This document shows positions 1-44,690 of a DNA stretch of 59,053 bases, in pieces. The stretch lies in IMG/VR virus record IMGVR_UViG_3300025154_000055. One strand, given 5' to 3'. Position 1 is the stretch's first letter; each line of letters begins with the position of its first letter. Origin of the DNA: an uncultured virus (IMG/VR IMGVR_UViG_3300025154_000055) (Duplodnaviria > Heunggongvirae > Uroviricota > Caudoviricetes). The notes under the pieces are model-generated. The model had not been told where the DNA came from. It worked only from the letters and a program-made list of their open reading frames with translations, and searched no databases. Both the position numbers and the translations under genes were made by a program.

Positions 1-34
1 CCATTGCGGTGTCTATTATTAAAGGGAATCGTCC

Positions 35-223
35 ATGATTGAACAACGCACCGATTGTGTAGACTGCCTATTACACCTCGCGTCCAACTTCTATGTCATT
101 AAAGAAGCGTGTGCCAGTGTTGGGATAGAGCACGGTCTGTCTACTGACGAGGAACTGGCTATATACGTGTCCTGGTATCACGCGAACGGACACCAATCTG
201 GTATGAAAAAGACCCTACCGTAA
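35..223 (+). CDS. small hypothetical protein
   Basis: 62-aa ORF with AAGGGA upstream, ending in the hairpin at 209-235. Confidence 0.4.
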   Translation: MIEQRTDCVDCLLHLASNFYVIKEACASVGIEHGLSTDEELAIYVSWYHANGHQSGMKKTLP

Positions 224-235
224 TGATAGGGTCTT
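206..235 (-). terminator. intrinsic terminator closing the minus-strand tRNA/HNH operon (possibly bidirectional)
   Basis: AAGACCCTA...TAGGGTCTT inverted repeat with A5 on the + strand (U tract on -), between convergent ORFs. Confidence 0.6.
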
Positions 236-431
236 ACCACGTTCTCCAGTTTACCTCGCCCTCAACTCCCAGTTGTCCACGATACGGATTGCCCACCACG
301 CGCCCCTGTTTCCACGCCCTGCGCCGTGCTTTAGAGAGACGACGCTTCCAGTATCGCCCCGTACCCACTCCGGGCCACACTTCTGAGAAGGACGGGACGT
401 GACCGTGACGAAAACGAATGGTGTCGGACAT
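234..431 (-). CDS. small basic hypothetical protein
   Basis: 65-aa Arg/Lys/Trp-rich ORF with a GGAGG RBS. Confidence 0.6.
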   Translation of the reverse strand: MSDTIRFRHGHVPSFSEVWPGVGTGRYWKRRLSKARRRAWKQGRVVGNPYRGQLGVEGEVNWRTW

Positions 432-433
432 GA

Positions 434-460
434 ACCTCCCGTGCGGTTACTTTACATAAC
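434..460. repeat. 27-bp dispersed motif copy
   Basis: ACCTCCCGTGCGGTTACTTTACATAAC. Confidence 0.7.
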
Positions 461-981
461 TAGATTTCTATATACTTCTTCCAAGATTCCGGCCAATCTC
501 CGCTGACGATAATGTAACTCGTGCGTGGCGTTTTGGCGATAAAATCTGGAAAGTAGAATCTCATTCCGCTGTCTTCGAGACTTCGATTGGATTTGCGCCG
601 ATTGCACTTAGGGCAGGCCGCGCAAGTATTAGACCACTGAGAGGCGCGAATACCACGACGGATACATTCTTCGCGCGAGATAATGTGGTCAATCGTCCCG
701 GTAGTTCTATCCAAATCACAGCCACAATACTGGCACTTCCAGTGGTCTCGTGTGAATACAGCGCGTCGGCTCCAGACCGCCTTTTTACGGGGCACATTTA
801 CGAACCTGCGTAGCCTTAGCACACTGGGAAAATCTAAGGTCAACGAGGGAGACCGGAGTTTCCTGTCCGGCACGCTTTCTAGCATATCCACTTTATCGCC
901 AAATATCAGGGATAGCGCACGCTGTAAACTGATAGCGCGAAGTGCTTCACCGTTGGCGTTCAACAAAAGTACGGCAGTCAC
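460..981 (-). CDS. HNH endonuclease (McrA/HNH_5-like)
   Basis: RRAVFTRD-CQYCG-TIDHII-CPKCNRRK motif; N-terminal VLLLNA. Confidence 0.9.
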   Translation of the reverse strand: MTAVLLLNANGEALRAISLQRALSLIFGDKVDMLESVPDRKLRSPSLTLDFPSVLRLRRFVNVPRKKAVWSRRAVFTRDHWKCQYCGCDLDRTTGTIDHIISREECIRRGIRASQWSNTCAACPKCNRRKSNRSLEDSGMRFYFPDFIAKTPRTSYIIVSGDWPESWKKYIEI

Positions 982-1007
982 GATATATTCCTTTCAAACA
1001 GTGTGAG

Positions 1008-1079
1008 TACCCGACGAGAATATTGAGTTCTCAACCTCGAATTTAGGAAATTCGCGCTCTATCTTTGAGCTAGTCGGGC
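1008..1079 (-). tRNA. tRNA-Arg(CCT)
   Basis: cloverleaf; acceptor GCCCGAC/GTCGGGT; loop TT-CCT-AA; T-loop CTCAATA. Confidence 0.85.
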
Positions 1080-1085
1080 ATATAG

Positions 1086-1157
1086 AGACGCCTGTCGGAA
1101 TTGAGCCGACGTATACAGGGTTGCGGCCTGTCACCTAATCCACTCGGTCAAGGCGTC
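1086..1157 (-). tRNA. tRNA-Cys(GCA)
   Basis: GACGCCT/AGGCGTC, U73; loop CC-GCA-AC; T-loop CTCAATT. Confidence 0.85.
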
Positions 1158-1295
1158 ATTTCTATGAGACGTTTTGCGCTTCTGTGGTCGTCTACGTCCG
1201 TCCACTTTCTCGCTATTACCGATCACTTTATGCGCCTTACACATCTGGCATCGGGCGCTGAATCGTCGGCAGACCTTCTTGTCGTAGTTAGCCAT
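1131..1295 (-). CDS. small basic CxxC peptide within the tRNA array
   Basis: MANYDKKVCRRFSARCQMCKAHK with AGGA RBS; 3' end overlaps tRNA-Cys. Confidence 0.45.
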   Translation of the reverse strand: MANYDKKVCRRFSARCQMCKAHKVIGNSEKVDGRRRPQKRKTSHRNDALTEWIR

Positions 1296-1300
1296 GACGA

Positions 1301-1405
1301 CTATCCTACAGACAGAGCGAATACGAACGTCCCGCACGCTACGATGGCGAGTATTCCAACAAAACACGCCAAAAATAATTCGTTCATTGGGTTTCTGTTT
1401 TCCAT
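1301..1405 (-). CDS. small membrane peptide
   Basis: MENRNPMNELFLACFVGILAIVACGTFVFALSVG, a single hydrophobic helix filling an inter-tRNA gap. Confidence 0.4.
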   Translation of the reverse strand: MENRNPMNELFLACFVGILAIVACGTFVFALSVG

Positions 1406-1407
1406 AG

Positions 1408-1480
1408 CACTCCGGTCACGATTTGAACGTGAGTAAACGGTTTCAGAGACCGTTGCACTGGGCCACTGTGCTACCAGAGT
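1408..1480 (-). tRNA. tRNA-Gln(CTG)
   Basis: ACTCTGG/CCGGAGT; loop CT-CTG-AA; TTCAAAT. Confidence 0.9.
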
Positions 1481-1483
1481 ATG

Positions 1484-1558
1484 TCGCCCAGCTCCGAGTC
1501 GAACGGAGGTGCAACCGTATCCCTGCGCCACTTATAAGATGGTTGGGCATACTGGGCG
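1484..1558 (-). tRNA. D-armless tRNA-like RNA, anticodon TAT (Ile)
   Basis: perfect acceptor CGCCCAG/CTGGGCG and T-arm; CCAT-CTTATAA-GTGG arm; no D-stem; long variable region. Confidence 0.5.
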
Positions 1559-1648
1559 TCTTGATGCCAATCTTCGTCATGTGCCACGCGGGGGATTGAC
1601 CCTCGCCACGCTACTGAGACGTGTTAAGTCCCCTGTAAGGGAATCGTG

Positions 1649-1720
1649 TGCCGCCCGTGGCGCTTGAATCCACGTCTACCGATTTTCACCCGGTCGCTAA
1701 ACCATCTCAGCTAGGGCGGC
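1649..1720 (-). tRNA. tRNA-Phe(GAA)
   Basis: GCCGCCC/GGGCGGC; loop GT-GAA-AA. Confidence 0.85.
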
Positions 1721-1723
1721 GTT

Positions 1724-1796
1724 TAGGCGATGGCTGAGTTGAACAGCCTTCTGAGAGGTGTAGGCTCCCCGTGATAGACCCTTCTACTAATCGCCT
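1724..1796 (-). tRNA. tRNA-Val(TAC)
   Basis: AGGCGAT/ATCGCCT; loop CC-TAC-AC; TTCAACT. Confidence 0.8.
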
Positions 1797-1939
1797 GTTT
1801 GCTATGTATCGCGGATTCCGCCACGACACTAACGGGATAGCGTCCCGCACCATTTGTCTTCCGAAGACGCATCACGGAGTCGAACCGATTCCCGTCTTAC
1901 CAAACCTCGGTGAGCGAGACAGAATCGAACTGTCTTTCG

Positions 1940-2012
1940 TGGAACTACGGGAACTCGAATCCCGATTCCGATCTTGAGGGGATCGTTACCTGTCCAATTA
2001 GTAGATAGTTCC
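1940..2012 (-). tRNA. tRNA-Glu(CTC)
   Basis: GGAACTA/TAGTTCC; loop CC-CTC-AA; TTCGAGT. Confidence 0.9.
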
Positions 2013-2123
2013 ATTTACCCCTCTACGCTTCCAGTGACGAGATTGATCCCGGCACTGTTCTATGAAAGGGCGACAGTCTCCCGCATCTACCTGAAATCGC
2101 AGACTCATATGCGAATGCGATTG

Positions 2124-2204
2124 TGGGCCTGACTGGAGTTGAACCAGCACGGGTTTCCCCAAAAGTTCCTAAGACTTTCGCGGCTGCGATTACGCCACAG
2201 GCCC
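2124..2204 (-). tRNA. tRNA-Leu(TAG)
   Basis: GGGCCTG/CAGGCCC; loop CT-TAG-GA; long variable arm. Confidence 0.9.
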
Positions 2205-2208
2205 GTAG

Positions 2209-2281
2209 CTGCTCCCCCGCGACTTAAACGCGGATCGTCCGATTTAACAGATCGGCGCACGATCAATTGTGCTAGAGAGCA
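2209..2281 (-). tRNA. tRNA-Asn(GTT)
   Basis: TGCTCTC/GGGAGCA, G73; loop CT-GTT-AA; T-loop TTTAAGT. Confidence 0.88.
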
Positions 2282-2349
2282 ATATTGTCGTCCGGTACTC
2301 TCCCCGACCGGACACGGAGGGTCGTCTTGATGATGAACGACCAAGATAG

Positions 2350-2423
2350 TACCCCATGAGTGAGTTGAGCACTCTACCTCCGCATCCGAAGTGCGGCGCT
2401 CTAGTCGGGTGAGCTAATGGGGC
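2350..2423 (-). tRNA. tRNA-Arg(TCG)
   Basis: GCCCCAT/ATGGGGT; loop CT-TCG-GA; T-loop CTCAACT. Confidence 0.88.
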
Positions 2424-2429
2424 GCTACA

Positions 2430-2513
2430 GTCATTCGTTGTTCCCCAGTCTATGCTCGCCCCACCCCGGAAGTGAGTTTGAATACGAGTGCCGCCTCGAA
2501 CGGCCCGAATGAC
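2430..2513 (-). ncRNA. stem-closed structured RNA, unknown
   Basis: 8-bp terminal inverted repeat GTCATTCG/CGAATGAC filling the gap between two tRNA genes. Confidence 0.4.
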
Positions 2514-2517
2514 CTTG

Positions 2518-2663
2518 TGCCGATGGCGAGATTCGGACTCGCAACTATTGTCAACAACTCCTCGACTAGCAGCGTTGTCGTTGACGCCTCCCTTACACTT
2601 TCGTCTGGGGGAGTGACCTCCGTCTTAGTCGGACGGCGCTCTTCCAATTTGAGCTACATCGGC
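2518..2663 (-). tRNA. tRNA-like RNA with a ~70-nt structured insertion in the variable region (loop CG-ACT-AA)
   Basis: perfect acceptor GCCGATG/CATCGGC, D-, anticodon- and T-stems; insert folds into two hairpins. Confidence 0.7.
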
Positions 2664-2742
2664 GTATCTAGGCGGTGTACACTTCCATACTCTTTCAGGC
2701 TGTTGCCAGATTGACGGGCGTTAATCCGTCACTTCCGCCACG

Positions 2743-2815
2743 GGCAGGATATGGGACTCGAACCCATGAGCATCTGATTGGCAACCAGACCCGATAGCCA
2801 CTACGGGAATCCTGC
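2743..2815 (-). tRNA. tRNA-Gly(GCC)
   Basis: GCAGGAT/ATCCTGC; loop TT-GCC-AA; TTCGAGT. Confidence 0.9.
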
Positions 2816-2907
2816 GTTCTGCGGTTCTCCGTCTGCCGTCCACTCCCACCGCAAGTCTTGCACATCGGCAGATAGTATTGACCAGACCAACACCCTTAAA
2901 GAGACAG

Positions 2908-2983
2908 TGCAAGGTGGCGGAGGCGAGCCGTGTCCTTCTTCCCCTTATCAGAGGGATGTTTCGTACCCCGAAACTGACCCTGC
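2908..2983 (-). tRNA. tRNA-Ile(GAT), degenerate T-arm
   Basis: GCAGGGT/ACCTTGC; TCCCT-CT-GAT-AA-GGGGA; weak T-arm CGG-CTCGCCT-CCG. Confidence 0.6.
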
Positions 2984-3053
2984 AAATGCGCGGTGTCTCC
3001 CATGCGAAGTTGATCAGTCAACACAAGTTCAACCATACTGCCGCGCCAGTAAG

Positions 3054-3125
3054 CAGACCCTCCCGATTTCGAGTCGGGACATGCGTCATCCAAAGTGACG
3101 TGCGCTACCTTTGCGCTAAGGGTCT
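3054..3125 (-). tRNA. tRNA-Gln(TTG)
   Basis: AGACCCT/AGGGTCT; loop CT-TTG-GA; T-loop CTCGAAA. Confidence 0.88.
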
Positions 3126-3131
3126 ATAAAG

Positions 3132-3222
3132 TGACTGCTATCTGATATTCCAATCGGGCTATCTTTCTCAGCACGCCATCTTCGCGTATTCGGACGATTT
3201 TGCCTCAGACCTGAAGCAGTCA
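3132..3222 (-). ncRNA. stem-closed structured RNA, unknown
   Basis: TGACTGCT/AGCAGTCA terminal stem plus inner TCTGA/TCAGA stem, between tRNA-Pro and tRNA-Gln. Confidence 0.45.
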
Positions 3223-3229
3223 GCGTAAG

Positions 3230-3304
3230 TCAGCGAAGAGGGATTTGAACCCCCGATCCCAAAGTCCCAAACTTTGTGCGTTGGCCGGTCTACGCTATTC
3301 GCTG
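3230..3304 (-). tRNA. tRNA-Pro(TGG)
   Basis: CAGCGAA/TTCGCTG; loop TT-TGG-GA; TTCAAAT. Confidence 0.92.
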
Positions 3305-3386
3305 TTTTGGTGGACGTTTTATGACGGAATGCGCCCTCCTCCGACATACTTCACGAATGTTTTCACTCAGAAGATATGTGAGCCAG

Positions 3387-3459
3387 TACCCCCACTCGGA
3401 CTTAAACCGAGATGTACAGATTAAAAGTCTGTCCCGTTATCAATTACGGACATGGAGGC
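3387..3459 (-). tRNA. tRNA-Lys(TTT)
   Basis: GCCTCCA/TGGGGGT; loop CT-TTT-AA; T-loop TTTAAGT. Confidence 0.87.
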
Positions 3460-3462
3460 GTG

Positions 3463-3537
3463 TGCATCCACCCCGATTTGAACGGGGACTAACTCGGTAA
3501 GGGCGAGCCATGCTGTGCCGTTGAACATTATGGATGC
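3463..3537 (-). tRNA. tRNA-Lys(CTT)
   Basis: GCATCCA/TGGATGC; loop CC-CTT-AC; TTCAAAT. Confidence 0.85.
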
Positions 3538-3657
3538 GTTTCTCGGTCGCTCAGGTCACTAGATTTGCATAGTCACTAAGTTCAGGTGTGCGTTTAGTAT
3601 CGGTGTGCCGATATTTCTTAGCGCATAACTTTCATCGCCCTCAATGACGACTGATTG

Positions 3658-3742
3658 CTGTGATGTGCAGAGTTGAACTGCAAGGCCATGACGACCACGT
3701 ACTTTCGAGATACGTCGGATGTGCCGATAATCCAACATCACA
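3658..3742 (-). tRNA. tRNA-Ser(CGA)
   Basis: TGTGATG/CATCACA, G73; loop CT-CGA-AA; long variable arm. Confidence 0.82.
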
Positions 3743-3748
3743 AAAGAG

Positions 3749-3834
3749 CGGTGAATAGAGTAGTCGAAACTCTGACCCTGTAACGGGCGCGGTATTTCCA
3801 ATACCGTTGGCTAAACCGACAAGCCGTATTCACC
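3749..3834 (-). tRNA. tRNA-Ser(GGA)
   Basis: GGTGAAT/ATTCACC, G73; loop TT-GGA-AA; long variable arm. Confidence 0.87.
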
Positions 3835-3840
3835 AAGTTA

Positions 3841-3955
3841 TTAGGGATTGCGACCGCGAGTTCCTGGCCCTATCGCGTCCTGTTTGATTCATCGTTGGCG
3901 GCACATATAGCCTTATCAGCACCGTTACCTTCTTCTCCACCAGAGCAATCCCTAA
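3841..3955 (-). ncRNA. stem-closed structured RNA, unknown
   Basis: perfect 11-bp terminal inverted repeat TTAGGGATTGC/GCAATCCCTAA filling the gap between two tRNA-Ser genes. Confidence 0.6.
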
Positions 3956-3958
3956 AGG

Positions 3959-4044
3959 CGGAAGCGGTGCGAGTTAAACGCACAGTCCCTTGCGGAACGC
4001 ACGGTTTCAAATCGTGCTAGAACTCTCGATATTCCAACGCTTCC
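3959..4044 (-). tRNA. tRNA-Ser(TGA)
   Basis: GGAAGCG/CGCTTCC, G73; loop TT-TGA-AA; long variable arm. Confidence 0.88.
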
Positions 4045-4145
4045 ATAGCATCTCGTTATCGCACGCCAGACGCCTAGCGCTTGCTTAAGGCGCGAAGAGC
4101 GACGGACTTTACCGTTGGATAGTTCTGCGGCGAACGTCCAGTGTA

Positions 4146-4218
4146 CACTCTCAGTCGGACTCGAACCGGCGTGAAATCGCTGAAAACGATCCATCCTAAG
4201 CCGCTAGATGATGAGAGT
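4146..4218 (-). tRNA. tRNA-Glu(TTC)
   Basis: ACTCTCA/TGAGAGT; loop TT-TTC-AG; TTCGAGT. Confidence 0.9.
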
Positions 4219-4271
4219 ATGGAGCAGGGCTGGCGTGGTCTTCGCCACGGAAGTTCCAGACACCTGCGTAT

Positions 4272-4348
4272 TGGGGTAGATGGAGGGACGTGCGCCCTCT
4301 ATAAACGGTTCCACAGACCGTCGCGGCACTATATTCGCCTCATCCACC
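4272..4348 (-). tRNA. tRNA-His(GTG)
   Basis: encoded G-1:C73 and CCA; loop CT-GTG-GA; T-loop CGCACGT. Confidence 0.88.
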
Positions 4349-4355
4349 ATGTTCT

Positions 4356-4530
4356 GCTAAATATCTGTAATCGAGAGTGGAACGGTCAAGGTTATCAGTT
4401 ATTCACGCTCTGGGAGAACTCCACGGGACACCTTTCGGTGTTTCTGCTTTCGCTTCGTCAGCCGAACCAGATGAGCGTCCAGATGTTTCCTGTCTCCGTT
4501 CCCGGCAACCCACGGTCACAGATATTTAAC
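4356..4530 (-). ncRNA. 175-nt rod with a central bubble, 6S RNA-like
   Basis: long closing stem (TAAATATCTGT..), GGAACGG/CCGTTCC stem, ~17/19-nt central bubble containing ACCTTGA, apical ACGCT/AGCGT stem. Confidence 0.5.
4405..4478 (-). ncRNA. type I hammerhead ribozyme core
   Basis: CGG-CUGACGA-A-GC-GAAA-GC-A-GAAAC-ACC-GAAA-GGU-GUC-CCG; predicted cleavage after GUC, between 4427 and 4426. Confidence 0.75.
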
Positions 4531-4533
4531 TTG

Positions 4534-4617
4534 CGGAGATGAGAATGCTCGAACTTCTAGTCCCTTTCGGAACGCCGCGTTAGCAGTGCGGTCGGAACAT
4601 CAATTTCCAACATCTCC
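4534..4617 (-). tRNA. tRNA-Ser(GCT)
   Basis: GGAGATG/CATCTCC, G73; loop CT-GCT-AA; long variable arm. Confidence 0.9.
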
Positions 4618-4841
4618 AGTTCGACTGATTGAGCGCGGGAATCATAGTACCTCTACCCTCTTTTAATGGTCTGCCGACCACTATCAGTCCATTCCCAAAT
4701 TATGTCATCCCCTTAAAGGAATCCTAATCATCACGTCCTGGGCAATCCGGCACGAGTCTGAGTCTGCGGTATCTAAGGTGTTACGTGCGTAGTCCCGCTG
4801 TATTCAGCGGCATACTTCTTGGGTTACAGATTGTACCCATG

Positions 4842-4915
4842 TGCGCCTCCCAGAACTCGAATCTGGACTCCTCCGTCCCGCGAACGGATGTGTTATCCAA
4901 TTACACCAGAGACGC
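4842..4915 (-). tRNA. tRNA-Arg(GCG)
   Basis: GCGTCTC/GAGGCGC; loop TC-GCG-GG; TTCGAGT. Confidence 0.85.
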
Positions 4916-5023
4916 ATTTGCAACCTTTGGTTGCCGTCGCCCATTGCATCACGCGATTTCATGAATTATGGTCTCGCGTTTTCAGTCATCTATCGATGGG
5001 GCGATAACCCCGATGACCTTGCA

Positions 5024-5096
5024 TGTCGGGTCTGGGAGTCGAACCCAGTTGAACGGAGCGTATGAGACTCCTGCCTTGCCGTTTGGCCTACCCGAT
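5024..5096 (-). tRNA. tRNA-Met(CAT), 1:72 mismatch (initiator-like)
   Basis: ATCGGGT/ACCCGAC; loop CT-CAT-AC; TTCGACT. Confidence 0.82.
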
Positions 5097-5101
5097 ACTG
5101 A

Positions 5102-5128
5102 ATCTCTATAGCGATTACTTGACATAAT
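5102..5128. repeat. 27-bp dispersed motif copy
   Basis: ATCTCTATAGCGATTACTTGACATAAT. Confidence 0.8.
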
Positions 5129-5132
5129 ACAA

Positions 5133-5277
5133 AATGTGTTGGGGCTGTGACTTCGACACGTCAAAACCTGCTGATCACTTGCCTCTTTTGCACTCTAGTC
5201 CGCTTTTACGTTGCGGCCCGCTAGTTCGTTTCCGATGAATAGCTGTATCCCTAGTCGCTCATGCAAGGCAACACATT
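5133..5277 (-). ncRNA. stem-closed multibranch RNA, unknown
   Basis: AATGTGTTG/CAACACATT terminal stem; nested GCCT/AGGC, TGCA/TGCA, CTAG/CTAG and CCGC/GCGG stems. Confidence 0.55.
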
Positions 5278-5290
5278 CTATTTCTGATAA

Positions 5291-5401
5291 AGATAGTGTC
5301 GGCGGAAGGCTTAGTATCACGCTGCTCCGCTTCCTGACCCGTGACGGTCTCCGAACTGTCCGCTATAAGGGTGCGACCCATATTCCAGACACGCACTATC
5401 T
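5291..5401 (-). ncRNA. 111-nt SRP(4.5S)-like RNA
   Basis: AGATAGTG/CACTATCT ends; rod ending in GUCACG-GG-UCAGG-aagcgg-AGCAG-CGUGAU, resembling the SRP helix 8 symmetric loop. Confidence 0.4.
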
Positions 5402-5403
5402 AG

Positions 5404-5476
5404 CAAGAGCGGTGGGACTTGCGCCCACTAAAACTGATTTTGGAGATCAGCCCCTATCTTCTTTGGGTTCGCCCTT
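5404..5476 (-). tRNA. tRNA-Trp(CCA)
   Basis: AAGGGCG/CGCTCTT, G73; loop CT-CCA-AA; T-loop CGCAAGT. Confidence 0.87.
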
Positions 5477-5484
5477 ATAGTTCT

Positions 5485-5528
5485 ATCTTACCCCAAGATG
5501 TTGAGTTAAGCAATGTTACTTAGGTACT
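5485..5528 (-). promoter_or_regulatory. internal sigma70-type promoter with upstream 15-bp box
   Basis: AGTACCTAAGTAACA-TTGCTT-17bp-TAAGAT just upstream of tRNA-Trp. Confidence 0.55.
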
Positions 5529-5530
5529 TG

Positions 5531-5604
5531 TGGAACAGATGGGATTTGCGCCCATAGAACCCTAATTTTGAATTAGAGATGTCTGCTAGTTGCATCACTG
5601 TTCC
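5531..5604 (-). tRNA. tRNA-Leu(CAA), short variable loop
   Basis: GGAACAG/CTGTTCC; loop TT-CAA-AA; 5-nt variable loop; T-loop CGCAAAT. Confidence 0.82.
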
Positions 5605-5607
5605 GTG

Positions 5608-5679
5608 TGGATCGTGGGGGAGTCGCGCCCCTCAAGACAAGAATATTGCAAGTATTCTCCGCTACCTCTATCCCGACCC
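5608..5679 (-). tRNA. tRNA-Ala(TGC), reduced D-arm
   Basis: G3:U70 pair and A73; loop CT-TGC-AA; no clear D-stem; T-loop CGCGACT. Confidence 0.7.
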
Positions 5680-5801
5680 GTATTGCTGGGAGCGACACGC
5701 CTGCCGCCCCCGTTGCTCTTGCAAGGTTCGCTTTCGCGTCCCAAGACCTCGCTACCACGCATGGTGGTTGAGACTTAAAACCTCAAGATAGACGACAATT
5801 T

Positions 5802-6137
5802 CTAGTTCAGCCGCTCAATCGTCTTACCGTTGTCGTTCAGTAAGTACACGCTCAAGTTAGACCCGATAATTACGCTTTTATCACCACGACTTGCGGTAAT
5901 AATAGCGCTTGTCGGGAATCCAACATTTCGCGCCACATTCAAGAATGTCTCATCGTATTGATCTAGCGGGATATTCGGATAACCGCTCACGGTATGATAC
6001 TCAACATTTTCGAGTCCATCCACGAATCGCCATCCCCCCTTCCATACTTCTTTAGTGTAGTTTCCGTCTCCATTCCCGTCCGATTCTGCGAGTTCGGGTA
6101 ACTGCCTGCCGTTCTCTGTTTCCATCTTGATAATCAT
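5802..6137 (-). CDS. hypothetical phage protein
   Basis: likely start MIIKMETENG with AGGAG RBS; the upstream extension in the ORF track overlaps tRNAs. Confidence 0.7.
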   Translation of the reverse strand: MIIKMETENGRQLPELAESDGNGDGNYTKEVWKGGWRFVDGLENVEYHTVSGYPNIPLDQYDETFLNVARNVGFPTSAIITASRGDKSVIIGSNLSVYLLNDNGKTIERLN

Positions 6138-6185
6138 CTGTCTTTCTCCTGTTCTGTCTCGCTGTCTGTCTATCTTGAGATTCAG

Positions 6186-6268
6186 TGGGCAATCAGTGAG
6201 TCGAACACTGCGTACTAAGTACACGGGTCTACAATCCGCTCCAACGATCCGATAGTTGGCTATTGCCC
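6186..6268 (-). tRNA. tRNA-Tyr(GTA)
   Basis: GGGCAAT/ATTGCCC; loop TT-GTA-GA; variable arm GTAC-TTA-GTAC. Confidence 0.9.
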
Positions 6269-6271
6269 AAG

Positions 6272-6346
6272 AGCTGATGGTCGAAGTCGAATCGACAATT
6301 ATGTTCCCGTACAGGGGGAGCGCCATACCAATTAGGCGACATCAGC
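6272..6346 (-). tRNA. tRNA-Thr(TGT)
   Basis: GCTGATG/CATCAGC; loop CC-TGT-AC; TTCGACT. Confidence 0.87.
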
Positions 6347-7002
6347 TAGAAACTCTTACCAGCTCTGTACCTTTCTTTTCTCGCCACTCTTCCATTTCCT
6401 CTGTTTTTACCTTTATATGTGTCAGTTTGCGCGTCACAATTTGGGCATATCAATCTAAGGTTACTTAGTCTATTATCGTATGGGTTTCCATCAATGTGAT
6501 CTACTATCAAGGGAATTTCTAAACCATTCCAAACCGATCCGTCGCATATTTCGCAAACATGCTTTCTTGTGGCGAGAATGGTTCTCCTGACGGACGGAGG
6601 TTCTATTTTTTCTCCGCCATTCATTTTTGATATATTTTCCAATATCCTGTTTTCAGATATGCACTTCATAGAACAGAACCTTTTGTAGTACGGGTTTTTT
6701 GTTGGAAGACCACACTGTTCACATATCGTATCTGGTTTTTTGTTTCTCGTCCTTCGTTTGTTATTGTAAGACGCAAAGCACGACGATCCGCAAAACACAT
6801 TTTTACCGAACGCGATCCCGCCACAGTTTTTGCATGGTTTATCGTGACGCTTGTGCCAATTTATATGATTAGTCATCGACACTCTAGCAATTGGCTTTCC
6901 GCACGAATCGCATTTTATCTTATCGGTTTTTCCACAATAAGATAAATGTCCCGCTACACTTCTCTTGGAATTAAATTCCCTGCCGCATTTTGGACAGTTC
7001 AT
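6346..7002 (-). CDS. HNH homing endonuclease with N-terminal zinc fingers
   Basis: multiple CxxC pairs; C-terminal VDHIDGNPYDNRLSNLRLICPNC. Confidence 0.9.
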   Translation of the reverse strand: MNCPKCGREFNSKRSVAGHLSYCGKTDKIKCDSCGKPIARVSMTNHINWHKRHDKPCKNCGGIAFGKNVFCGSSCFASYNNKRRTRNKKPDTICEQCGLPTKNPYYKRFCSMKCISENRILENISKMNGGEKIEPPSVRRTILATRKHVCEICDGSVWNGLEIPLIVDHIDGNPYDNRLSNLRLICPNCDAQTDTYKGKNRGNGRVARKERYRAGKSF

Positions 7003-7026
7003 ATCTCGACTCCAGTTTTGAATATA

Positions 7027-7055
7027 ATTGTACCACTGATTTCGGATATTGACAA
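7027..7055 (-). promoter_or_regulatory. sigma70-type promoter for the HNH gene
   Basis: TTGTCA-17bp-TACAAT with extended -10 TG. Confidence 0.6.
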
Positions 7056-7078
7056 CACTAAGTAGCGGAATCGGGATA

Positions 7079-7152
7079 AGAGACCGGTGGGATTTGAACC
7101 CATCATATCTAACTTGGAAGGATAGCGCCCTACCGGATTGGACGACGGTCTC
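7079..7152 (-). tRNA. tRNA-Gly(TCC)
   Basis: GAGACCG/CGGTCTC, U73; loop CT-TCC-AA. Confidence 0.9.
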
Positions 7153-7156
7153 GTTG

Positions 7157-7228
7157 ATCCAGAGACCCGAATTGAACGGGCGCTATTACTGTACGAAAGT
7201 AACGTCCTGCCGACTAGACGACTCTGGA
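7157..7228 (-). tRNA. tRNA-Thr(CGT)
   Basis: TCCAGAG/CTCTGGA; loop TT-CGT-AC. Confidence 0.87.
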
Positions 7229-7317
7229 ATGTTTTCAATTGTTAAGGAATGGCTGTTTCGCTATGCCAGTACAGCCATCGAAACTTCTGTAGGTCACGAG
7301 ATATAATCAGGCGACAG

Positions 7318-7392
7318 TGCCGACAGCAGAACTCGAATCTGCAAGCCCACGGGTTTAGGCCGTAGAGGTATGCCACTTCCCATCATGTCGGC
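7318..7392 (-). tRNA. tRNA-Leu(TAA), short variable loop
   Basis: GCCGACA/TGTCGGC; loop CC-TAA-AC; 5-nt variable loop. Confidence 0.82.
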
Positions 7393-7400
7393 GTTTCTGA

Positions 7401-7544
7401 ATAACTGTCACCGAGCGGAGAACTATACGGTCGTTCTCACACCCGCTGGTCAGGCGCTTTCTTATTGCTACCCTACATCGCAACCAACGATGATACTCTC
7501 GCAATGTGCTACGGGTTACACGTAGCCCGATCGGTGACAGTTAT
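7401..7544 (-). ncRNA. stem-closed multibranch RNA, unknown
   Basis: perfect 14-bp terminal stem ATAACTGTCACCGA/TCGGTGACAGTTAT plus three internal hairpins. Confidence 0.65.
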
Positions 7545-7554
7545 CCAAAATCAG

Positions 7555-7627
7555 AGCCAACAGGGGCGCTCGAATCCCCAACCTTATCTTTACCAAAGAT
7601 ACGTTCATCCATTTGAACTTTGTCGGC
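7555..7627 (-). tRNA. tRNA-Thr(GGT)
   Basis: GCCGACA/TGTTGGC; loop TT-GGT-AA. Confidence 0.9.
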
Positions 7628-7632
7628 AAAGG

Positions 7633-7704
7633 CGCGGATGATGGGTACTGGCCCCACTACTTATTCCTCGACAGGGAATCGCCTCGCTTTCCGGCTCCAC
7701 CCGC
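7633..7704 (-). tRNA. tRNA-Asp(GTC)
   Basis: GCGGGTG/CATCCGC, G73; loop CT-GTC-GA; T-loop GCCAGTA. Confidence 0.8.
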
Positions 7705-7713
7705 AGATACTAA

Positions 7714-7865
7714 AAACGCTTGTCGTTCCTTGCGGTTCGCCCAAGCGCCAATCCAATCCTTCAAGAGCGAAACCGCTACATCTTGTCCCCTGCGTCATGG
7801 CGCGTGACGAGATTCCCCAATTCGGGGGTATTCGCCAAAAACCAATTCTGATACGATAAGCGTTT
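7714..7865 (-). ncRNA. stem-closed multibranch RNA, unknown
   Basis: 13-bp terminal stem AAACGCTTATCGT/ACGACAAGCGTTT (one mismatch); starts just after the promoter at 7876-7904. Confidence 0.6.
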
Positions 7866-7875
7866 CATGTGAACA

Positions 7876-7904
7876 ATCATAAAGGATATTGCGACCGTTG
7901 TCAA
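7876..7904 (-). promoter_or_regulatory. strong sigma70-type promoter
   Basis: TTGACA-17bp-TATGAT. Confidence 0.75.
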
Positions 7905-7919
7905 TAGTCAATTTCAGTA

Positions 7920-8061
7920 AGATTGCGCGACTCCCGCGTTACCTCAGATTAGCCACATCGGGACGGTATCAGCGAGTGATTCTGAGAACTCCATCCACCG
8001 TTCGTCACGCCAAGTATCCAGTCCGCTTTTCGCAGTGGGAGGACATGCCGCCGCGCAATCT
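7920..8061 (-). ncRNA. stem-closed structured RNA, unknown
   Basis: 10-bp terminal stem AGATTGCGCG/CGCGCAATCT immediately 3' of tmRNA. Confidence 0.55.
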
Positions 8062-8063
8062 AG

Positions 8064-8374
8064 TGGAAATGTGGGGAGTCGAACCCCAGTCTCTCAGATT
8101 CCGGTTACATCATTCTTACGAGCGTGTCAGACTTTGAGAAAGTCTACGAAACAGGGATACCCTGACTTCGGTATCACTCCACCATCCGTCTTACTACTAG
8201 GCGACGGAAGCCTGTACTGCATTGCCGAATAACGCCTCGGCTAACGACGCCTGCGCGAAGGCAGGGTGTGTCAACTTGCTAGAGTTAGCATTTGATATTT
8301 GCGTTCATTAGGATTCAGAACGCCTACCGCTCGTGACGTTTTCCTTCCACTGAAATCGATTCCGGTTCATTCCC
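8064..8374 (-). ncRNA. ssrA: tmRNA
   Basis: acceptor GGGAATG/CATTTCC with G3:U70 and A73; GAC-T-arm; internal tag ORF 8289-8197 ANSSKLTHPAFAQASLAEALFGNAVQASVA followed by three stops. Confidence 0.93.
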
Positions 8375-8449
8375 ATGTACGCCGTTCTACGCTCTCGATT
8401 CGACTATGAACGGAAAACAGCCCCTATGTTTCGCTGGCATTAAGCCTTG

Positions 8450-8523
8450 TACCCCACGGAGAACTCGAATCTCCAACCTGCAAATTAGAAATTTGTCGCT
8501 CTGTCCAGTTGAGCTAGTGAGGC
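8450..8523 (-). tRNA. tRNA-Arg(TCT)
   Basis: GCCTCAC/GTGGGGT; loop TT-TCT-AA; TTCGAGT. Confidence 0.93.
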
Positions 8524-8545
8524 ATTTTACCACTATTTATTCTAA

Positions 8546-8719
8546 TTGACGGGACGGGAATCGAACCCATCTTTCCTGCGTAGTCTGGTACGACTTCGGT
8601 GAGTAGTCTACCCAGATTGCAGACCGAACCCGACACCCTTCTGTTTATCGTTAGCAAGACGACAGTGGGCGTCGCTCCCGACAACCGTTCGGATCAGTAC
8701 CGTACTGATGAACCGTCAA
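8546..8719 (-). ncRNA. 174-nt tRNA-like RNA with a multibranch body
   Basis: TTGACGG/CCGTCAA acceptor-like stem, canonical TTCGATT T-arm, 6-bp D-like stem, ~100 nt of extra hairpins. Confidence 0.6.
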
Positions 8720-8825
8720 CCATTGCGTCTTAGAGTAACGCACGACCGCCGAAGGACTCATTTTTGATTAGGTCTGTTATTCCGGCATTTACGAAACTAA
8801 CCACGCTTCGTGTTCTCTGACTGTC

Positions 8826-8868
8826 ATTATAATCATTCTCGGAAATCTTGCAATGGTACTTCTGTCTC
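8826..8868 (-). promoter_or_regulatory. main promoter of the RNA operon
   Basis: 15-bp box, TTGCAA-16bp-TATAAT. Confidence 0.6.
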
Positions 8869-9334
8869 ACTCGCAATTAACCCCAATTACCGTTAAACCG
8901 CCGACACTGTGCCGATAGTCTACCGACACCCTGTACCCCGCAGCCTTCCAGTGCCTAATGTCCCCCAGACTGCCGACAAACTGGCATCTCGGATACGCCA
9001 TATTGGGATATACCATCACTACGTCCATGACGACTTGCGCCACGTCTTCCCGAAACCTGAATGAGTGCGCACCGATTGCCCATCGCCACTGCGTCAGGTT
9101 CTCGCATCCGAGTCTCCGAACGTCATACATCACTTGGGACGCCAGAAAACGCCATGCAATCTCGTCCATGTCGCCAACTTCGTGCTGAGTAATGCGCCCG
9201 ATAGTGGTGAGGCATTCTGGCGTTGTCCATTTAGGAAAGTCTGGAATGGGGTCTAGTGGTGACGCAGACGCGATTCTCGTTACGCAGAATGTAACGAAAA
9301 TACACGCCAGTAATAAGCGCCTCACAGATACCAC
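8867..9334 (-). CDS. exported hypothetical protein
   Basis: N-terminal signal peptide (RRLLLACIFVTFC..ASA); stop/start overlap with upstream ORF. Confidence 0.65.
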   Translation of the reverse strand: MVSVRRLLLACIFVTFCVTRIASASPLDPIPDFPKWTTPECLTTIGRITQHEVGDMDEIAWRFLASQVMYDVRRLGCENLTQWRWAIGAHSFRFREDVAQVVMDVVMVYPNMAYPRCQFVGSLGDIRHWKAAGYRVSVDYRHSVGGLTVIGVNCE

Positions 9335-9765
9335 GACTGTAGTTCGTTTATCTTAGACTCCGTGTAGTATCGCCTGTCTCGGACAATAACGTTGACGATA
9401 GACGTGTCTTTGGGAAGACTTTTAAGAACGTCTTCTAAGACTGATGTAAGTAAGTATCCCTCCACAATCAACAGGGCGTTACCTGCCAATTCCTCTTTAA
9501 TAAGCGCCAAGACATATTTCTTCCACTGAGACCTCCCCAGTCTGTGAACGCTTAACACTGTCTTATAGTGCTGAGACACCACGCACGCTATATCGGATAG
9601 GTACAGAGACGGATGCCTGTCTCTGATGAAATCCACATAGGCGCTATCGAGATGAACTATTCCGCATATTCTGTTTTCAGACAACCTGTCCGCTAGATAG
9701 GTCTTCCCTTGTCCCGGTTCGCCAGTAATGAGTACGACTTGCGCCATATCACTTATCCTTTTCAT
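9322..9765 (-). CDS. P-loop kinase/NTPase
   Basis: Walker A GEPGQGKT; LIVEG. Confidence 0.8.
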   Translation of the reverse strand: MKRISDMAQVVLITGEPGQGKTYLADRLSENRICGIVHLDSAYVDFIRDRHPSLYLSDIACVVSQHYKTVLSVHRLGRSQWKKYVLALIKEELAGNALLIVEGYLLTSVLEDVLKSLPKDTSIVNVIVRDRRYYTESKINELQSWYL

Positions 9766-9979
9766 CTGGAAATTCTGTCAAGTGCCACTCGTGAAACCAT
9801 TTCAGGAACTCCCGTACCTCTTGCTCGTTGTACTGGTCGCCGTATAGTTTGCTACGCAAGTATTTCAACCGGCAAACGAAACAGGCAATGTCACCTCCCG
9901 GTGTAGGTGTAAATTGCAGTTCCAAGTAATCCCGCCTCTTTGTTCCACACAAATGCCTCTGCTTGACGTTGATTACCAA
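9749..9979 (-). CDS. small hypothetical protein
   Basis: fills gap in the operon; true start uncertain. Confidence 0.4.
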   Translation of the reverse strand: MVINVKQRHLCGTKRRDYLELQFTPTPGGDIACFVCRLKYLRSKLYGDQYNEQEVREFLKWFHEWHLTEFPDEKDK

Positions 9980-11210
9980 CGAACAGATTCTCGGAATGCC
10001 ACGTATCCGTACCGCTCAGAGATGGCAGAATCCTGACGCGAATACCGAACTTCTCCTCAACTTTTGTCTGGTGCTTATCGCCCGTGTGAATCTCTCGGTA
10101 AAGGGTTTGCCCCCAATCTTCGGGCCGCTCTGACGCCATGAGGGACGGGTAGTCCATGCGACGGCCTTTGTCCCCATGCGAGAATAGCAAGAGAACCTTT
10201 CCCCATCGTTCGTACTTCCGCGCAGACGGATCGTTATTGATCGTCACGTCCTTGTACTTATGGAACCAGCACTCCAAAGAGTCGCCCAAGTGCCACGCCG
10301 TCATTCGGTCGTGATTCCCCGGAACAACCAGCACCTTAACCGGAGCGATCTGCCGTAGCGTGTCAATCGCGTTTACCATGACTTCTCGGACAATCTTGAA
10401 CGTCCTGTGGTAGCGCGTGTCGCCGTCTACCTGAGTGCCAGAATAGGTGGTGTTCCCTGAGTTGTCGGTGTGAAACACGTCGTTCCCGACCACAAACAAT
10501 ACCTCGCCAAACTTGTAGGGTTCTACGCGAGACAGAAGAGTGGGGACTGCTTCCTCGAAGATTCGTCGGGCAATAGACACGTCATAGTCCTCGTATCCCG
10601 TCTGCAAGTGCCATCCAACTTTTCCAAAGTGCATATCGGGGAGGCACATTTCCAGCATATTATCAGACATCTTATTGGGGTATTTTATGGGCTTTACGGC
10701 AGGGGATACCAGTTTGGCCGCGATCTTGAGCGCGTCTATTTCTTTTCGCGCGTCCTCAATTTCCCTGCGCTTCTTGAGAGTTGCCCTGATGCTATTCAGA
10801 GGGGTAACGGTATAATCTCCGTCTCCATCTCGCAACCACATCTTCGAGTCGCCAGTCGCTTGCGTACCGTGAACGACCTCGTAGCGACTAATACGAAGTT
10901 CGGTAATCTCCCACAGTCCCATGTCTATCTGATACGCCTTGACTAACTCATCTTGGGTGCTAATAGGAGTTCTATCTAGTGAGATTGACCACGTATCCCC
11001 TTTGACGCTCTGCACATCGCGTGGGCTAGAGTTTGTTTGTGGTTTAACCACATTGGCCCGCATCCGAATACCACGCACCGCCTTGTCGGTAGTTTTGAAT
11101 CCCATTTTGCTCAATTGAGAAACAAGTTCCTTGTCCGTCCTCTCTCCGCCAATCTCAATAACGATTTCTCGTGCCGTTTTGCCGTTTTTTAAGGGGGAAT
11201 CCCAATTCAC
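9891..11210 (-). CDS. calcineurin-like metallophosphoesterase/nuclease
   Basis: DMHFG, GNDVFH, PGNHD, HGD and HTGDKH motifs. Confidence 0.88.
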   Translation of the reverse strand: MNWDSPLKNGKTAREIVIEIGGERTDKELVSQLSKMGFKTTDKAVRGIRMRANVVKPQTNSSPRDVQSVKGDTWSISLDRTPISTQDELVKAYQIDMGLWEITELRISRYEVVHGTQATGDSKMWLRDGDGDYTVTPLNSIRATLKKRREIEDARKEIDALKIAAKLVSPAVKPIKYPNKMSDNMLEMCLPDMHFGKVGWHLQTGYEDYDVSIARRIFEEAVPTLLSRVEPYKFGEVLFVVGNDVFHTDNSGNTTYSGTQVDGDTRYHRTFKIVREVMVNAIDTLRQIAPVKVLVVPGNHDRMTAWHLGDSLECWFHKYKDVTINNDPSARKYERWGKVLLLFSHGDKGRRMDYPSLMASERPEDWGQTLYREIHTGDKHQTKVEEKFGIRVRILPSLSGTDTWHSENLFVGNQRQAEAFVWNKEAGLLGTAIYTYTGR

Positions 11211-25867: not shown

Positions 25868-26325
25868 TGGCGTTTATCCTTATAGAAGTCTTTCCACGAG
25901 AAGTCCGTATCATTATTAACGTGCTGCGTCATCATAAGTGAGTGCTCGTAAGACGGAAGAGACACCTTAATGTCTGGATACAGCGCCTTAAGGTCGAAAT
26001 CGTGTACGGTGTAGACTACAGGATGCTCGCGCTTGAATGACGCCGGAATCCATCGGAGATAGTAGTCATCCACGGCGTACCACTTCTCTTTCAGCGCTTC
26101 TTTCCAGTCTCTTGGATACTTGACTGTGAAGGTCTTAACACTCTCTCCCCACAAATACCCGTTGACTCTAACTCCGAATCCCACTAAGAGATAGTCGGTG
26201 AACAGTTCTGCGTTAGCGTCCAGAAACTTCTCTTGGAATGTTTGTAACATCCCGAATCGAATCTTTTCGAGACGAATTGTCCTGTATGACGGACTAAAGT
26301 CTAGCGTATCGTCTTGTTGCGTCAT
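25864..26325 (-). CDS. hypothetical protein
   Basis: likely start MTQQDD overlapping the upstream stop. Confidence 0.65.
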   Translation of the reverse strand: MTQQDDTLDFSPSYRTIRLEKIRFGMLQTFQEKFLDANAELFTDYLLVGFGVRVNGYLWGESVKTFTVKYPRDWKEALKEKWYAVDDYYLRWIPASFKREHPVVYTVHDFDLKALYPDIKVSLPSYEHSLMMTQHVNNDTDFSWKDFYKDKRQ

Positions 26326-26915
26326 GAGTGGGGTTCTCGCGCTGACTCTGCCGCCCACGCCATTGCCTTCTGGAGAACGGTATTGTTACTGCCGTTAATG
26401 AGACGCGACACACCTGACTCTGTGATGCTTAGAATCTCGCCTGTCTCTTTCAGGGATTTTCCTTCTACCGTGTGCAATCGGTGTGCGTCCAGGGCGCGTT
26501 GATACCGCATCTCCATCTCTGCGGCAGACTTCTTGCGGCGTCCAATCGTGGACTTATCCCCGTACTTGGCGTAATTGAGTACCTGGTTATGCGCCCCAAT
26601 CTCAGCGGGTGTGCCGTAGAACAAGTTATCTGCGGTACAGTCTGCCTTATTCCCATTCTTGTAGGATGCCATAGCGCGTTCTGGGCGTTCTCCAATGAAC
26701 GCTTGCGCCACAAGCTGTGCCAGACTGACGTTCTTCTGCTTGCCGTTGATACACAGCATGACACGGGTGTATCCTTTGGGCGTAACTAGGAGTCCGTGAA
26801 TCTTGGGTTCCTTCAGAACGTGTCCGAAGATACCGCGAGTGGTGGTTCGGACGCGCCCCAGACTGGAGACTTCGTAATTGTCGTATTGTGTTGCTTTCCA
26901 AACTTCTTCTGTCAT
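26322..26915 (-). CDS. NUMOD4/HNH-derived protein with C-terminal HTH (HNH degenerate)
   Basis: EVWK..YEVSSLGRVR NUMOD4; LVAQAFIG..SYKNGNKADCTADNL; GKSLKETGEILSITESGVSRLING HTH. Confidence 0.85.
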   Translation of the reverse strand: MTEEVWKATQYDNYEVSSLGRVRTTTRGIFGHVLKEPKIHGLLVTPKGYTRVMLCINGKQKNVSLAQLVAQAFIGERPERAMASYKNGNKADCTADNLFYGTPAEIGAHNQVLNYAKYGDKSTIGRRKKSAAEMEMRYQRALDAHRLHTVEGKSLKETGEILSITESGVSRLINGSNNTVLQKAMAWAAESAREPHS

Positions 26916-32005: not shown

Positions 32006-32011
32006 CATAAC
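31985..32011. repeat. 27-bp dispersed motif copy
   Basis: AACTCTCTAGCGATTACTTGACATAAC. Confidence 0.8.
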
Positions 32012-32019
32012 GAAGGAGA

Positions 32020-44680: not shown

Positions 44681-44690
44681 TTTGTATCAA

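Follow-up and report, generated by a model that had tools for sequence, protein, structure and literature searches.

The transfer RNA (tRNA) clusters of phages T5 and T4 encode, in addition to their tRNAs, small stable RNAs that came to light in the 1970s and 1980s. We describe here a comparable arrangement in a 59,053-nucleotide (nt) stretch of DNA from the uncultured Caudoviricetes virus IMGVR_UViG_3300025154_000055, which was analyzed over its whole length and is hereafter called the window. Its minus strand carries a phage tRNA operon (1008..8635) that comprises as many as 37 genes for tRNAs or tRNA-like RNAs, a transfer-messenger RNA (tmRNA), one open reading frame (ORF) for an HNH homing-type endonuclease, one ORF of 111 amino acids and about 25 spacers. 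An original prediction, made from the sequence letters, had placed ten unrelated noncoding RNAs with mutually pairing ends (here U1 to U10) in the gaps between these tRNAs, over a range (2430..8061) that proves narrower than the array, and had viewed them as an RNA-only accessory system that tRNA scanners miss. We find that the feature is genuine but partly over-counted, with about four solid units (U3, U4, U5 and U8), two borderline ones (U1 and U10) and four that are explained by chance (U2, U6, U7 and U9). Rather than a new kind of system, the arrangement is the classical one of T5 and T4, and by analogy the units of the window are best regarded as a further example of that class of tRNA-operon stable RNAs, which is itself functionally unexplained.

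In the T5 record (NC_005859) 25 tRNAs lie on one strand within about 15 kb, in a region that also holds many internal promoters and four further genes for HNH endonucleases, with a fifth at its edge. Eight features of this record are annotated as "stable RNA with unknown functions" or "tRNA-like stable RNA", namely RNAIII (106 nt), RNAI (107 nt), RNA1 (144 nt), RNA2H (172 nt), RNAIV (103 nt), RNA2 (125 nt), RNA3 (73 nt) and RNAX (719 nt). Several of them abut tRNAs or one another by 0-4 nt, two lie directly behind promoters, and all seven small ones are predicted to have paired termini of 5-12 base pairs (bp) and branched interiors. The T4 cluster, which contains the homing endonuclease SegB, has rnaC (RNAC, species 1, 139 nt) and rnaD (RNAD, species 2, 119 nt) immediately after tRNA-Arg, with intervals of 1 and 6 nt. 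Stem-closed folds are predicted for seven of the nine small T5 and T4 RNAs, with rnaC closing only weakly and the closure of rnaD being absent from its minimum free energy (MFE) fold. A search of the T4 and T5 stable-RNA regions with Rfam retrieved tRNAs only and no family for any of these RNAs. In the portions of PMC3014915 and PMC9697503 that deal with such RNAs, transcription of RNAC and RNAD from the tRNA region is confirmed, their role is given as not known, and the T5/T4-type cluster RNAs in general are still without a function.

All RNA genes of the array in the window lie on the minus strand, and on this strand each of the ten predicted terminal helices is present and forms part of the MFE fold of its unit. 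The internal multibranched hairpins that had been claimed for the units are likewise borne out in all ten folds, and the gaps are indeed filled nearly edge to edge, with distances of 0-9 nt between the units and the adjacent tRNAs or tmRNA once weak tRNAs are counted; the spacing between unit and tRNA equals that between tRNA and tRNA elsewhere in the array. None of the 20 ORFs that overlap the units has a PHROG match at an expectation value (E) of 0.01 or lower, and most of these ORFs also overlap tRNAs, which agrees with the earlier statement that convincing ORFs are lacking.

The extent to which the closing stems exceed chance differs widely between the units. Perfect stems of at least 9 bp with a span of 40-220 nt show no more than a mild excess in the array, where 9 occur in 7.8 kb (1.15 per kb) against 34 in the remaining 50 kb of the window (0.68 per kb), and three stems of at least 11 bp are found in the array against four in the rest of the window. 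We then compared the helix formed between the terminal 10 nt at the two ends of each inter-tRNA gap with those in 1000 shuffles, and p values of 0.05 or lower were obtained for four of 24 gaps, where about 1.2 are expected. These are the gaps at 3126-3228 (U3, 8 bp, p=0.041) and 3835-3956 (U4, 11 bp, p=0.001), and those at 4348-4532 (U5, 15 bp) and 7393-7553 (U8, 20 bp including G·U pairs), for which no shuffle did as well. A looser test anchored at one end was used for the composite gaps that hold U1, U7, U9 and U10. Fold stability was expressed as a z-score against dinucleotide shuffles, and for the eight units other than U5 and U8 it ranges from -0.05 to -2.1. The count of ten stem-closed RNAs thus stands for the four units that beat their shuffles, is borderline for U1 and U10, and fails for U2, U6, U7 and U9.

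The two strongest units are also the most structured. U5 (4356..4530, 175 nt; MFE -62.9) is closed by a helix of 15 bp, made of 11 perfect pairs and an extension with G·U pairing (two G·U pairs in all), and its predicted fold is rod-like and capped by a head of three hairpins that contains two GAAA tetraloops; its z-score is -4.08 on the minus strand and -2.05 on the plus strand. U8 (7393..7553; 7401-7544 in the original prediction) has a perfect helix of 14 bp that lengthens to 20 bp with an extension containing G·U pairs (MFE -59.7, z -5.02), and bridges tRNA-Thr(ggt) to tRNA-Leu(taa) with 3 and 2 nt left over and four hairpins inside; the z-score of the whole gap reaches -6.92. U4 (3841..3955, 115 nt) fills the gap between tRNA-Ser(tga) and tRNA-Ser(gga) and is closed by 11 perfect bp, whereas U3 (3132..3222, 91 nt; z -2.06) combines a closing helix of 8 bp with an inner helix into a predicted self-contained fold, the core of which is conserved in a relative. 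The borderline units are U1 (2430..2513, 84 nt), with a closing helix of 8-9 bp, an MFE of -26.4, a z-score of -1.33 and an anchored-stem p of 0.067, and U10 (7920..8061, 142 nt; z -1.32, anchored p=0.06), whose perfect 10-bp helix starts directly after the 3' end of the tmRNA.

The remaining four units are those for which terminal pairing is at the level of chance. U2 (2988..3046, 59 nt) has a closing helix of 6 bp, a gap-closing p of 0.30 and a z-score of -0.05, and U7 (5291..5401, 111 nt) one of 8 bp with an anchored p of 0.45 and a z-score of -2.06. The 9-bp helix of U6 (5133..5277, 145 nt; z -0.36) is not separable from chance, and it has no p value of its own, the best stem at that gap end (9 bp, p=0.22) being a different helix; the gap shared by U6 and U7 has a z-score of -0.48. 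For U9 (7714..7865, 152 nt; z -1.27, anchored p=0.35) a 13-bp stem had been noted, of which the helix itself is found but not its continuity, there being 8 and 4 bp around one mismatch. The start of U9 is some 11 nt downstream of the -10 hexamer that belongs to the best promoter-like site in 1-10000 (TTGACA-17-TATGAT at 7876..7904, minus strand, between U10 and U9, with 11 of 12 consensus matches), and U9 is therefore probably a 5' leader RNA. Further promoter-like sites lie at 8853-8826 and 7055-7027, and the total number of such sites is no higher than in shuffles. One small self-contained hairpin spacer that was not among the ten units lies at 7229..7316 (minus strand, z -2.09).

Several features indicate on which molecule the closing helices operate. 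The two G·U pairs among the 15 of the U5 helix, and two more in the 6-bp extension by which the U8 helix grows from 14 to 20 bp, can form only in a minus-strand transcript. No target-site duplications were seen on reading the sequence that flanks U4, U5, U8 and U10, and the ends of the units do not recur above chance elsewhere in the window. Taken together, the strand-specific G·U pairs, the lack of flanking duplications at these units and the non-recurring arms therefore point to helices that act at the RNA level, on the transcribed strand. The claim that the units share no sequence holds for the set, in that pairwise comparison of 24 units and spacers gave nothing beyond 12-nt matches; it fails for the closing arms of U5 (4361-4374 / 4512-4525) and U8 (7401-7414 / 7531-7544), which are alike at 11 of 14 bases and occupy the same structural position. 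The 3' ends of these two units align at 20 of 27 positions, and the alignment score of the whole units is not significant; the two may be distant paralogs.

We further folded each gap together with both neighboring tRNAs and compared the expected number of spacer-tRNA pairs with that in 40 shuffles. This number is close to zero for U3, U4, U5, U8 and the spacers at 7229-7316 and 4220-4271, with at most one of 40 shuffles being as low: the values are 1.7 for U3 (0/40 as low), 0.7 for U4 (1/40), 1.0 for U5 (0/40), 0.0 for U8 and 0.2 for 7229-7316 (0/40). Cross-pairing is as high as in the shuffles for U1, U2, the U6/U7 gap and most other gaps. In these models self-containment would hence be confined to some of the spacers and would not characterize the array as a whole.

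Comparison with other strains provides a view of how the array evolves. Contigs of the groundwater runs X5, X7, X9 and X10 were aligned to 1000-8700; they are fragmentary, and what follows holds among the matches listed. Near-identical strains in other groundwater runs differ from the window by whole cassettes. A relative from run X7 joins 7320 to 7712, so that the Asp-like gene, tRNA-Thr, U8 and tRNA-Leu (7321-7711) are absent, and the same contig joins 6187 to 7242 and lacks the Thr/Gly/HNH/Thr/Tyr block (6188-7241), that is, the HNH ORF and four tRNAs; it retains U9 and most of U10 (7712-8015) with 2 differences in 304 nt. The array thus gains and loses blocks of genes, possibly by way of the HNH endonuclease. 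A relative contig also aligns with the U6 portion 5141-5191 at a likeness of at least 80%. In a 678-nt contig (runs X9/X10) the core of U3 (3138-3211) is kept at 66 of 74 positions, with 8 differences, between flanks that are unrelated to those of the window and that, when inspected by eye, pair again as TGTCGC/GCGACA over 6 bp just outside the conserved inner helix. In this relative the closing helix of U3 can again form, which suggests that it was replaced in sequence and retained as a helix; by our own rough estimate the chance of such re-paired flanks lies between 1 in about 100 and 1 in a few hundred. Among the matches listed, this swapped stem is the only comparative support for any of the helices. 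A 36-nt piece (4396-4431) with foreign flanks in four runs was given no weight, being by our estimate a possible chance match at 80% likeness.

More distant relatives were sought through the neighboring exonuclease. As a single query against viral contigs it found none; a profile made from an alignment of 21 homologs yielded 14, 21 and 1 loci in metagenome, viral and genome contigs, respectively. Homologs with 63-78% identity lie on short contigs or Logan contigs, and the closest loci examined (L001, L002 and L015) are 54-55% identical. Five of the six closest loci have no tRNA within reach, and the remaining one (L017) has five ordinary tRNAs. In four whole relative records a tRNA search found no array, with two records lacking tRNAs, one having one and one having three. 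An exact 20-mer from U9 had no match in viral contigs.

The resemblance to T5 extends to many aspects of the organization. Both have the RNAs in question on the tRNA strand (0-20 nt from tRNAs in T5), in an array with HNH endonucleases and internal promoters; their sizes are similar (73-172 nt in T5, apart from the 719 nt of RNAX, and 59-175 nt in the window); and two T5 RNAs lie directly behind promoters, as U9 does here. In contrast, three T5 RNAs are annotated as tRNA-like, two of which (RNA1 and RNA2) show a T-arm in their fold, and a terminal CCA is present in RNAI and RNA3; U1-U10 have none of these features, and in the window only a separate element at 2530-2665 is tRNA-like. Moreover, the stability of the T5 RNAs is an annotation of the record, whereas the units of the window are known from sequence alone. 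As to T4, RNAC bears a canonical T-arm and its terminal helix is weak, RNAD lacks stem closure in its MFE fold, and these two RNAs stand at the end of the cluster, whereas the window has a series interleaved with tRNAs. The T5/T4 class is defined by context and is not a homologous family. In terms of context, the units are non-tRNA segments of a phage tRNA cluster that lie on the tRNA strand and abut tRNAs at 0-9 nt; in form, U3, U4, U5 and U8 are clearly recognizable as noncoding RNAs of about 70-170 nt that fold compactly and have paired ends, the other six being weak or at chance. The original prediction had suggested an Infernal search against Rfam; run over 1-9500, it returned no family inside any of the ten units, even at E<=10. 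As the T4 and T5 RNAs are equally blank in Rfam, this result is no argument against membership in their class.

RNase III processing stalks, such as the stems of ribosomal RNA operons and the early sites of T7, are another known feature of polycistronic stable-RNA transcripts. U8, and less clearly U5, may resemble them in having a helix of at least 20 bp built from the flanks of an internal RNA that lies between two mature RNAs. It differs in that the RNA enclosed by the U8 or U5 helix matches no known functional RNA.

These comparisons suggest how the units might arise. Long minus-strand transcripts, probably starting near the promoter-like sites at 8853 and 7904, would carry the tRNAs, the tmRNA and the non-tRNA spacers. 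A subset of the spacers would form autonomous RNA domains with paired 5' and 3' ends, clearly so in the case of U3, U4, U5 and U8 and possibly in that of U10, U1 and U9. Host RNase P would cut at the 5' end of the next tRNA, 2-8 nt past the closing helix, and RNase E or exonucleases would trim behind the previous tRNA, back to the helix, and thereby free the domain. Termini buried in a helix would resist 3' exonucleases, so that the closed RNA would survive as a by-product; discrete stable RNAs are therefore to be expected, like RNAI, RNAIII, RNAIV and RNA2H of T5 and RNAC and RNAD of T4. By analogy with these phages, release by processing of the flanking tRNAs and persistence by virtue of the paired ends is plausible. 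The most likely role of the domains would be in cis: they would stop the spacer from pairing with the unusually weak neighboring tRNAs and would also give the processing enzymes single-stranded leaders of 2-8 nt. In U8, the helix of 20 bp would be long enough for an RNase III site, so that cleavage there is possible, and U9 may be a 5'-terminal stabilizing stem-loop of the transcript from 7904. U2, U6 and U7 would be ordinary spacer with the terminal pairing that chance gives. A role in cis in orderly folding and processing, together with stable accumulation, is the reading that we prefer, and we give it a probability of about 0.6.

Several observations weigh against this preferred reading. 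In six of the ten units the closing stem is no better, or scarcely better, than chance would give. For U9 the more stable fold is that of the strand that is not transcribed (z -3.48 on the plus strand against -1.27 on the minus strand). The relatives examined through their exonuclease (at most 55% amino acid identity) have no tRNA array. The swapped stem of U3 comes from one contig and from 30-nt loose-end consensus sequences, and its chance value is our own estimate. In a distant-setting blastn search of 2400-8400 the units showed no similarity in sequence to the RNAs of T4 or T5, so that the likeness to them would be one of kind and not of descent. Finally, pairing between spacers and tRNAs is not reduced overall (mean z -0.09 over 22 gaps), and we accordingly reject insulation from such pairing as a general design rule; in the strong units it would follow almost automatically from their own stability.

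Some of these points are what would be expected if there were no discrete RNA at all and the spacers were fast-evolving filler, the remnants of decayed or rearranged tRNA cassettes, with pairings that are due to chance or left over from acceptor stems and with RNA that is simply degraded. This view would also accommodate the at least 13 further spacers of the array that lack stem closure, the mean z-score of the spacers, which is just -1.36 on the minus strand against -1.01 on the plus strand, the gain and loss of cassettes between strains, and the fact that several of the neighboring genes are degenerate tRNA-likes. We nevertheless consider it unlikely, for helices that exactly bridge two tRNAs were matched by one in 1000 shuffles (11 bp) or by none (15 and 20 bp), and their G·U pairs are strand-specific. 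Nor did the ten units give any tRNA or tRNA-remnant signal, either with Rfam at E<=10 or with a covariance model built from tRNAs of the same phage and run with filters off (we regard the matches of this model to U3, with 4.6 bits and E 9.6, and to a 21-nt fragment of U8, with E 6.5, as noise), and the T5 counterparts are annotated as stable RNAs. The same differences between strains, by cassette-sized indels, could alternatively be ascribed to elements that act as DNA, the inverted repeats being ends of miniature mobile elements, attC-like sites, or homing or recombination sites that drive the shuffling of cassettes. The three HNH endonuclease ORFs in or near the array, the likeness of the U5 and U8 arms and the occurrence of the U3 core between different flanks fit such a scheme. 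It is very improbable, however, since the G·U extensions of the U5 and U8 helices become A·C mismatches on the other strand in DNA, the indel joints in relatives lie at tRNA ends and not at unit ends, and a Pfam scan revealed no transposase or integrase in the window. A miniature inverted-repeat mobile element was rejected on the lack of duplications flanking U4, U5, U8 and U10, on ends that are not repeated above chance and on helices that use G·U pairs. As for attC-like ends, only the termini of U5 resemble GTTRRRY/RYYYAAC, which we take to be the attC motif, and they do so in the wrong order and with no integrase.

It is also conceivable that at least U5, U8 and U3 are phage small RNAs with targets of their own, for which the tRNA operon serves as a vehicle of expression and processing; they might act as decoys or sponges for host RNases or for tRNA-directed defense nucleases, or as regulators of host or phage mRNAs. 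In favor of this proposal, U5 and U8 carry much more structure than a spacer requires (z -4 to -7) and contain GNRA tetraloops, the core of U3 was kept while its flanks were replaced, the theme recurs in T5 and T4, which suggests selection, and the phage invests in a nearly complete set of tRNAs and a tmRNA. We regard it as doubtful, distinctly more so than mere filler, because no target, partner protein or family could be identified for these RNAs, which have no Rfam match at E<=10, and because the units are not tRNA-like, as a decoy for an anticodon nuclease should be. Furthermore, there is no Ro60, reverse transcriptase or RNA ligase in the 59 kb, U8 is dispensable in a near-identical strain, and decades of work have given no role for RNAC and RNAD of T4, as far as the portion of PMC3014915 that treats them goes. 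Slightly more doubtful still is the stronger form of this idea, that U5, U8 and perhaps the core of U3 are founding members of undescribed families of trans-acting phage small RNAs that, for example, titrate a host RNase or a defense nuclease; the related closing arms of U5 and U8 and the exceptional stability of their multi-hairpin heads are what prompt it. If it were true, the tRNA operon would be a general phage platform for a changeable panel of RNAs, and the stable RNAs of T5 and T4 would gain a function.

The same architecture as in T5 and T4 is present in an unrelated, uncultured groundwater phage, a recurrence that speaks for a general class subject to some selection. The window by itself adds an example and no mechanism; in U5 and U8 it offers two unusually clean candidates that are worth experiment.

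The more specific identities that the original prediction had offered for the units, namely decoys, antitoxin or CRISPR mimics and ribozymes, find no support, with no Rfam match at E<=10, no repeats and no likeness to tRNAs. In particular, no Rfam model of a self-cleaving ribozyme (hammerhead, twister, pistol, hatchet or HDV-like) matched 1-9500 at E<=10. A match to group-II-D1D4-4 at 5206-5430 scores 19.6 bits, far below the gathering score of 49 (E 0.59), and is noise. An identity as 5S, 6S, 4.5S or Y RNA-like RNA was rejected for want of an Rfam match; Y RNA or YrlA likewise had no match in Rfam, and no TROVE/Ro60 domain is present within the 59-kb window. No Pfam reverse transcriptase, as would belong to a retron, was found among the 65 window ORFs scanned, the window covering 59 kb of a contig of about 121 kb, and no RNA ligase was seen in the Pfam scan of the window.

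The gene content of the operon emerges from several kinds of search. ARAGORN with default settings reports 22 tRNAs and the tmRNA, Rfam adds four tRNAs (1008-1079, 3387-3459, 4275-4347 and 7555-7627), and relaxed ARAGORN (-ps90) brings the tRNA total to 31. The phage-specific covariance model, built from 25 tRNAs of the same phage, gave eight further minus-strand matches at E<0.001 and two weak ones, including genes outside its training set. One of the latter is a tRNA-Trp(cca)-like gene at 5403..5476 (48 bits, E 1.6e-11) that has a cloverleaf fold, adjoins U7 and was missed by both ARAGORN and Rfam. A tRNA-Asp(gtc)-like gene at 7632..7704 (23.6 bits, E 6.5e-5), with a cloverleaf as its MFE fold and an anticodon assigned by eye, fills the gap after U9. 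The same model also identifies a tRNA-like gene at 1483..1558 and a weaker tRNA-like match at 5607..5679, all of these being on the minus strand. The tRNA-like gene with an insert at 2530..2665 (minus strand) was recognized from partial matches of this model (2575-2663, 14.1 bits; 2517-2566, 11.5 bits) and by direct reading: about 70 extra nt that form two hairpins stand between its variable region and T-arm, the acceptor, D and T arms are normal, and position 33 is a G. In kind, this element resembles RNA1 of T5, a "tRNA-like stable RNA". The His, Trp-like and Leu-caa tRNAs (4272-4347, 5403-5476 and 5530-5604, minus strand) have in common an unusual T-arm, GGGCGCA(A/C)(A/G)TCCC, with a loop of the CGCA type in place of the usual TTCRA, and default scanners miss them or score them down.

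The tmRNA gene (8061..8374, minus strand) matches Rfam RF00023 with 65.8 bits against a gathering score of 47, and ARAGORN reports its tag peptide, which is long, with 30 residues and three stop codons; U10 stands directly behind this gene. The HNH homing-type endonuclease ORF of the array (6346..7002, minus strand) matches PHROG HNH families with E values down to 2e-25 as well as Pfam HNH_3, and is preceded by the promoter-like site at 7027-7055. It is one of three HNH-type endonuclease ORFs on the minus strand of the window, the others being at 463-981, at the downstream edge of the array, and at 26325-26915. The 111-amino-acid ORF lies within the array at 5802..6137.

At the DNA level, megablast and blastn searches of the window against INPHARED phage records found either nothing or HNH genes only, and a distant-setting blastn search of 2400-8400 against 50,697 phage records again found HNH genes only. 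The nearest isolate is an acidobacterial phage, with 42% amino acid identity in the neighboring exonuclease, and DNA of the window is present in groundwater metagenome runs. The proteins encoded in the window are of phage type and include a tape measure protein, a major head protein, a sliding clamp, SSB, RNase H, Dam and an Mre11-like exonuclease. On the plus strand, a cluster at 30403-42529 encodes glycosyltransferases, an FdtA-like sugar isomerase, a short-chain dehydrogenase, a KAS-III-like condensing enzyme, a MaoC dehydratase, a methyltransferase and a GNAT acetyltransferase, and looks like a pathway of sugar or acyl modification. A ferritin/Dps-like ORF is located on the same strand at 44682-45209, just upstream of the head genes.

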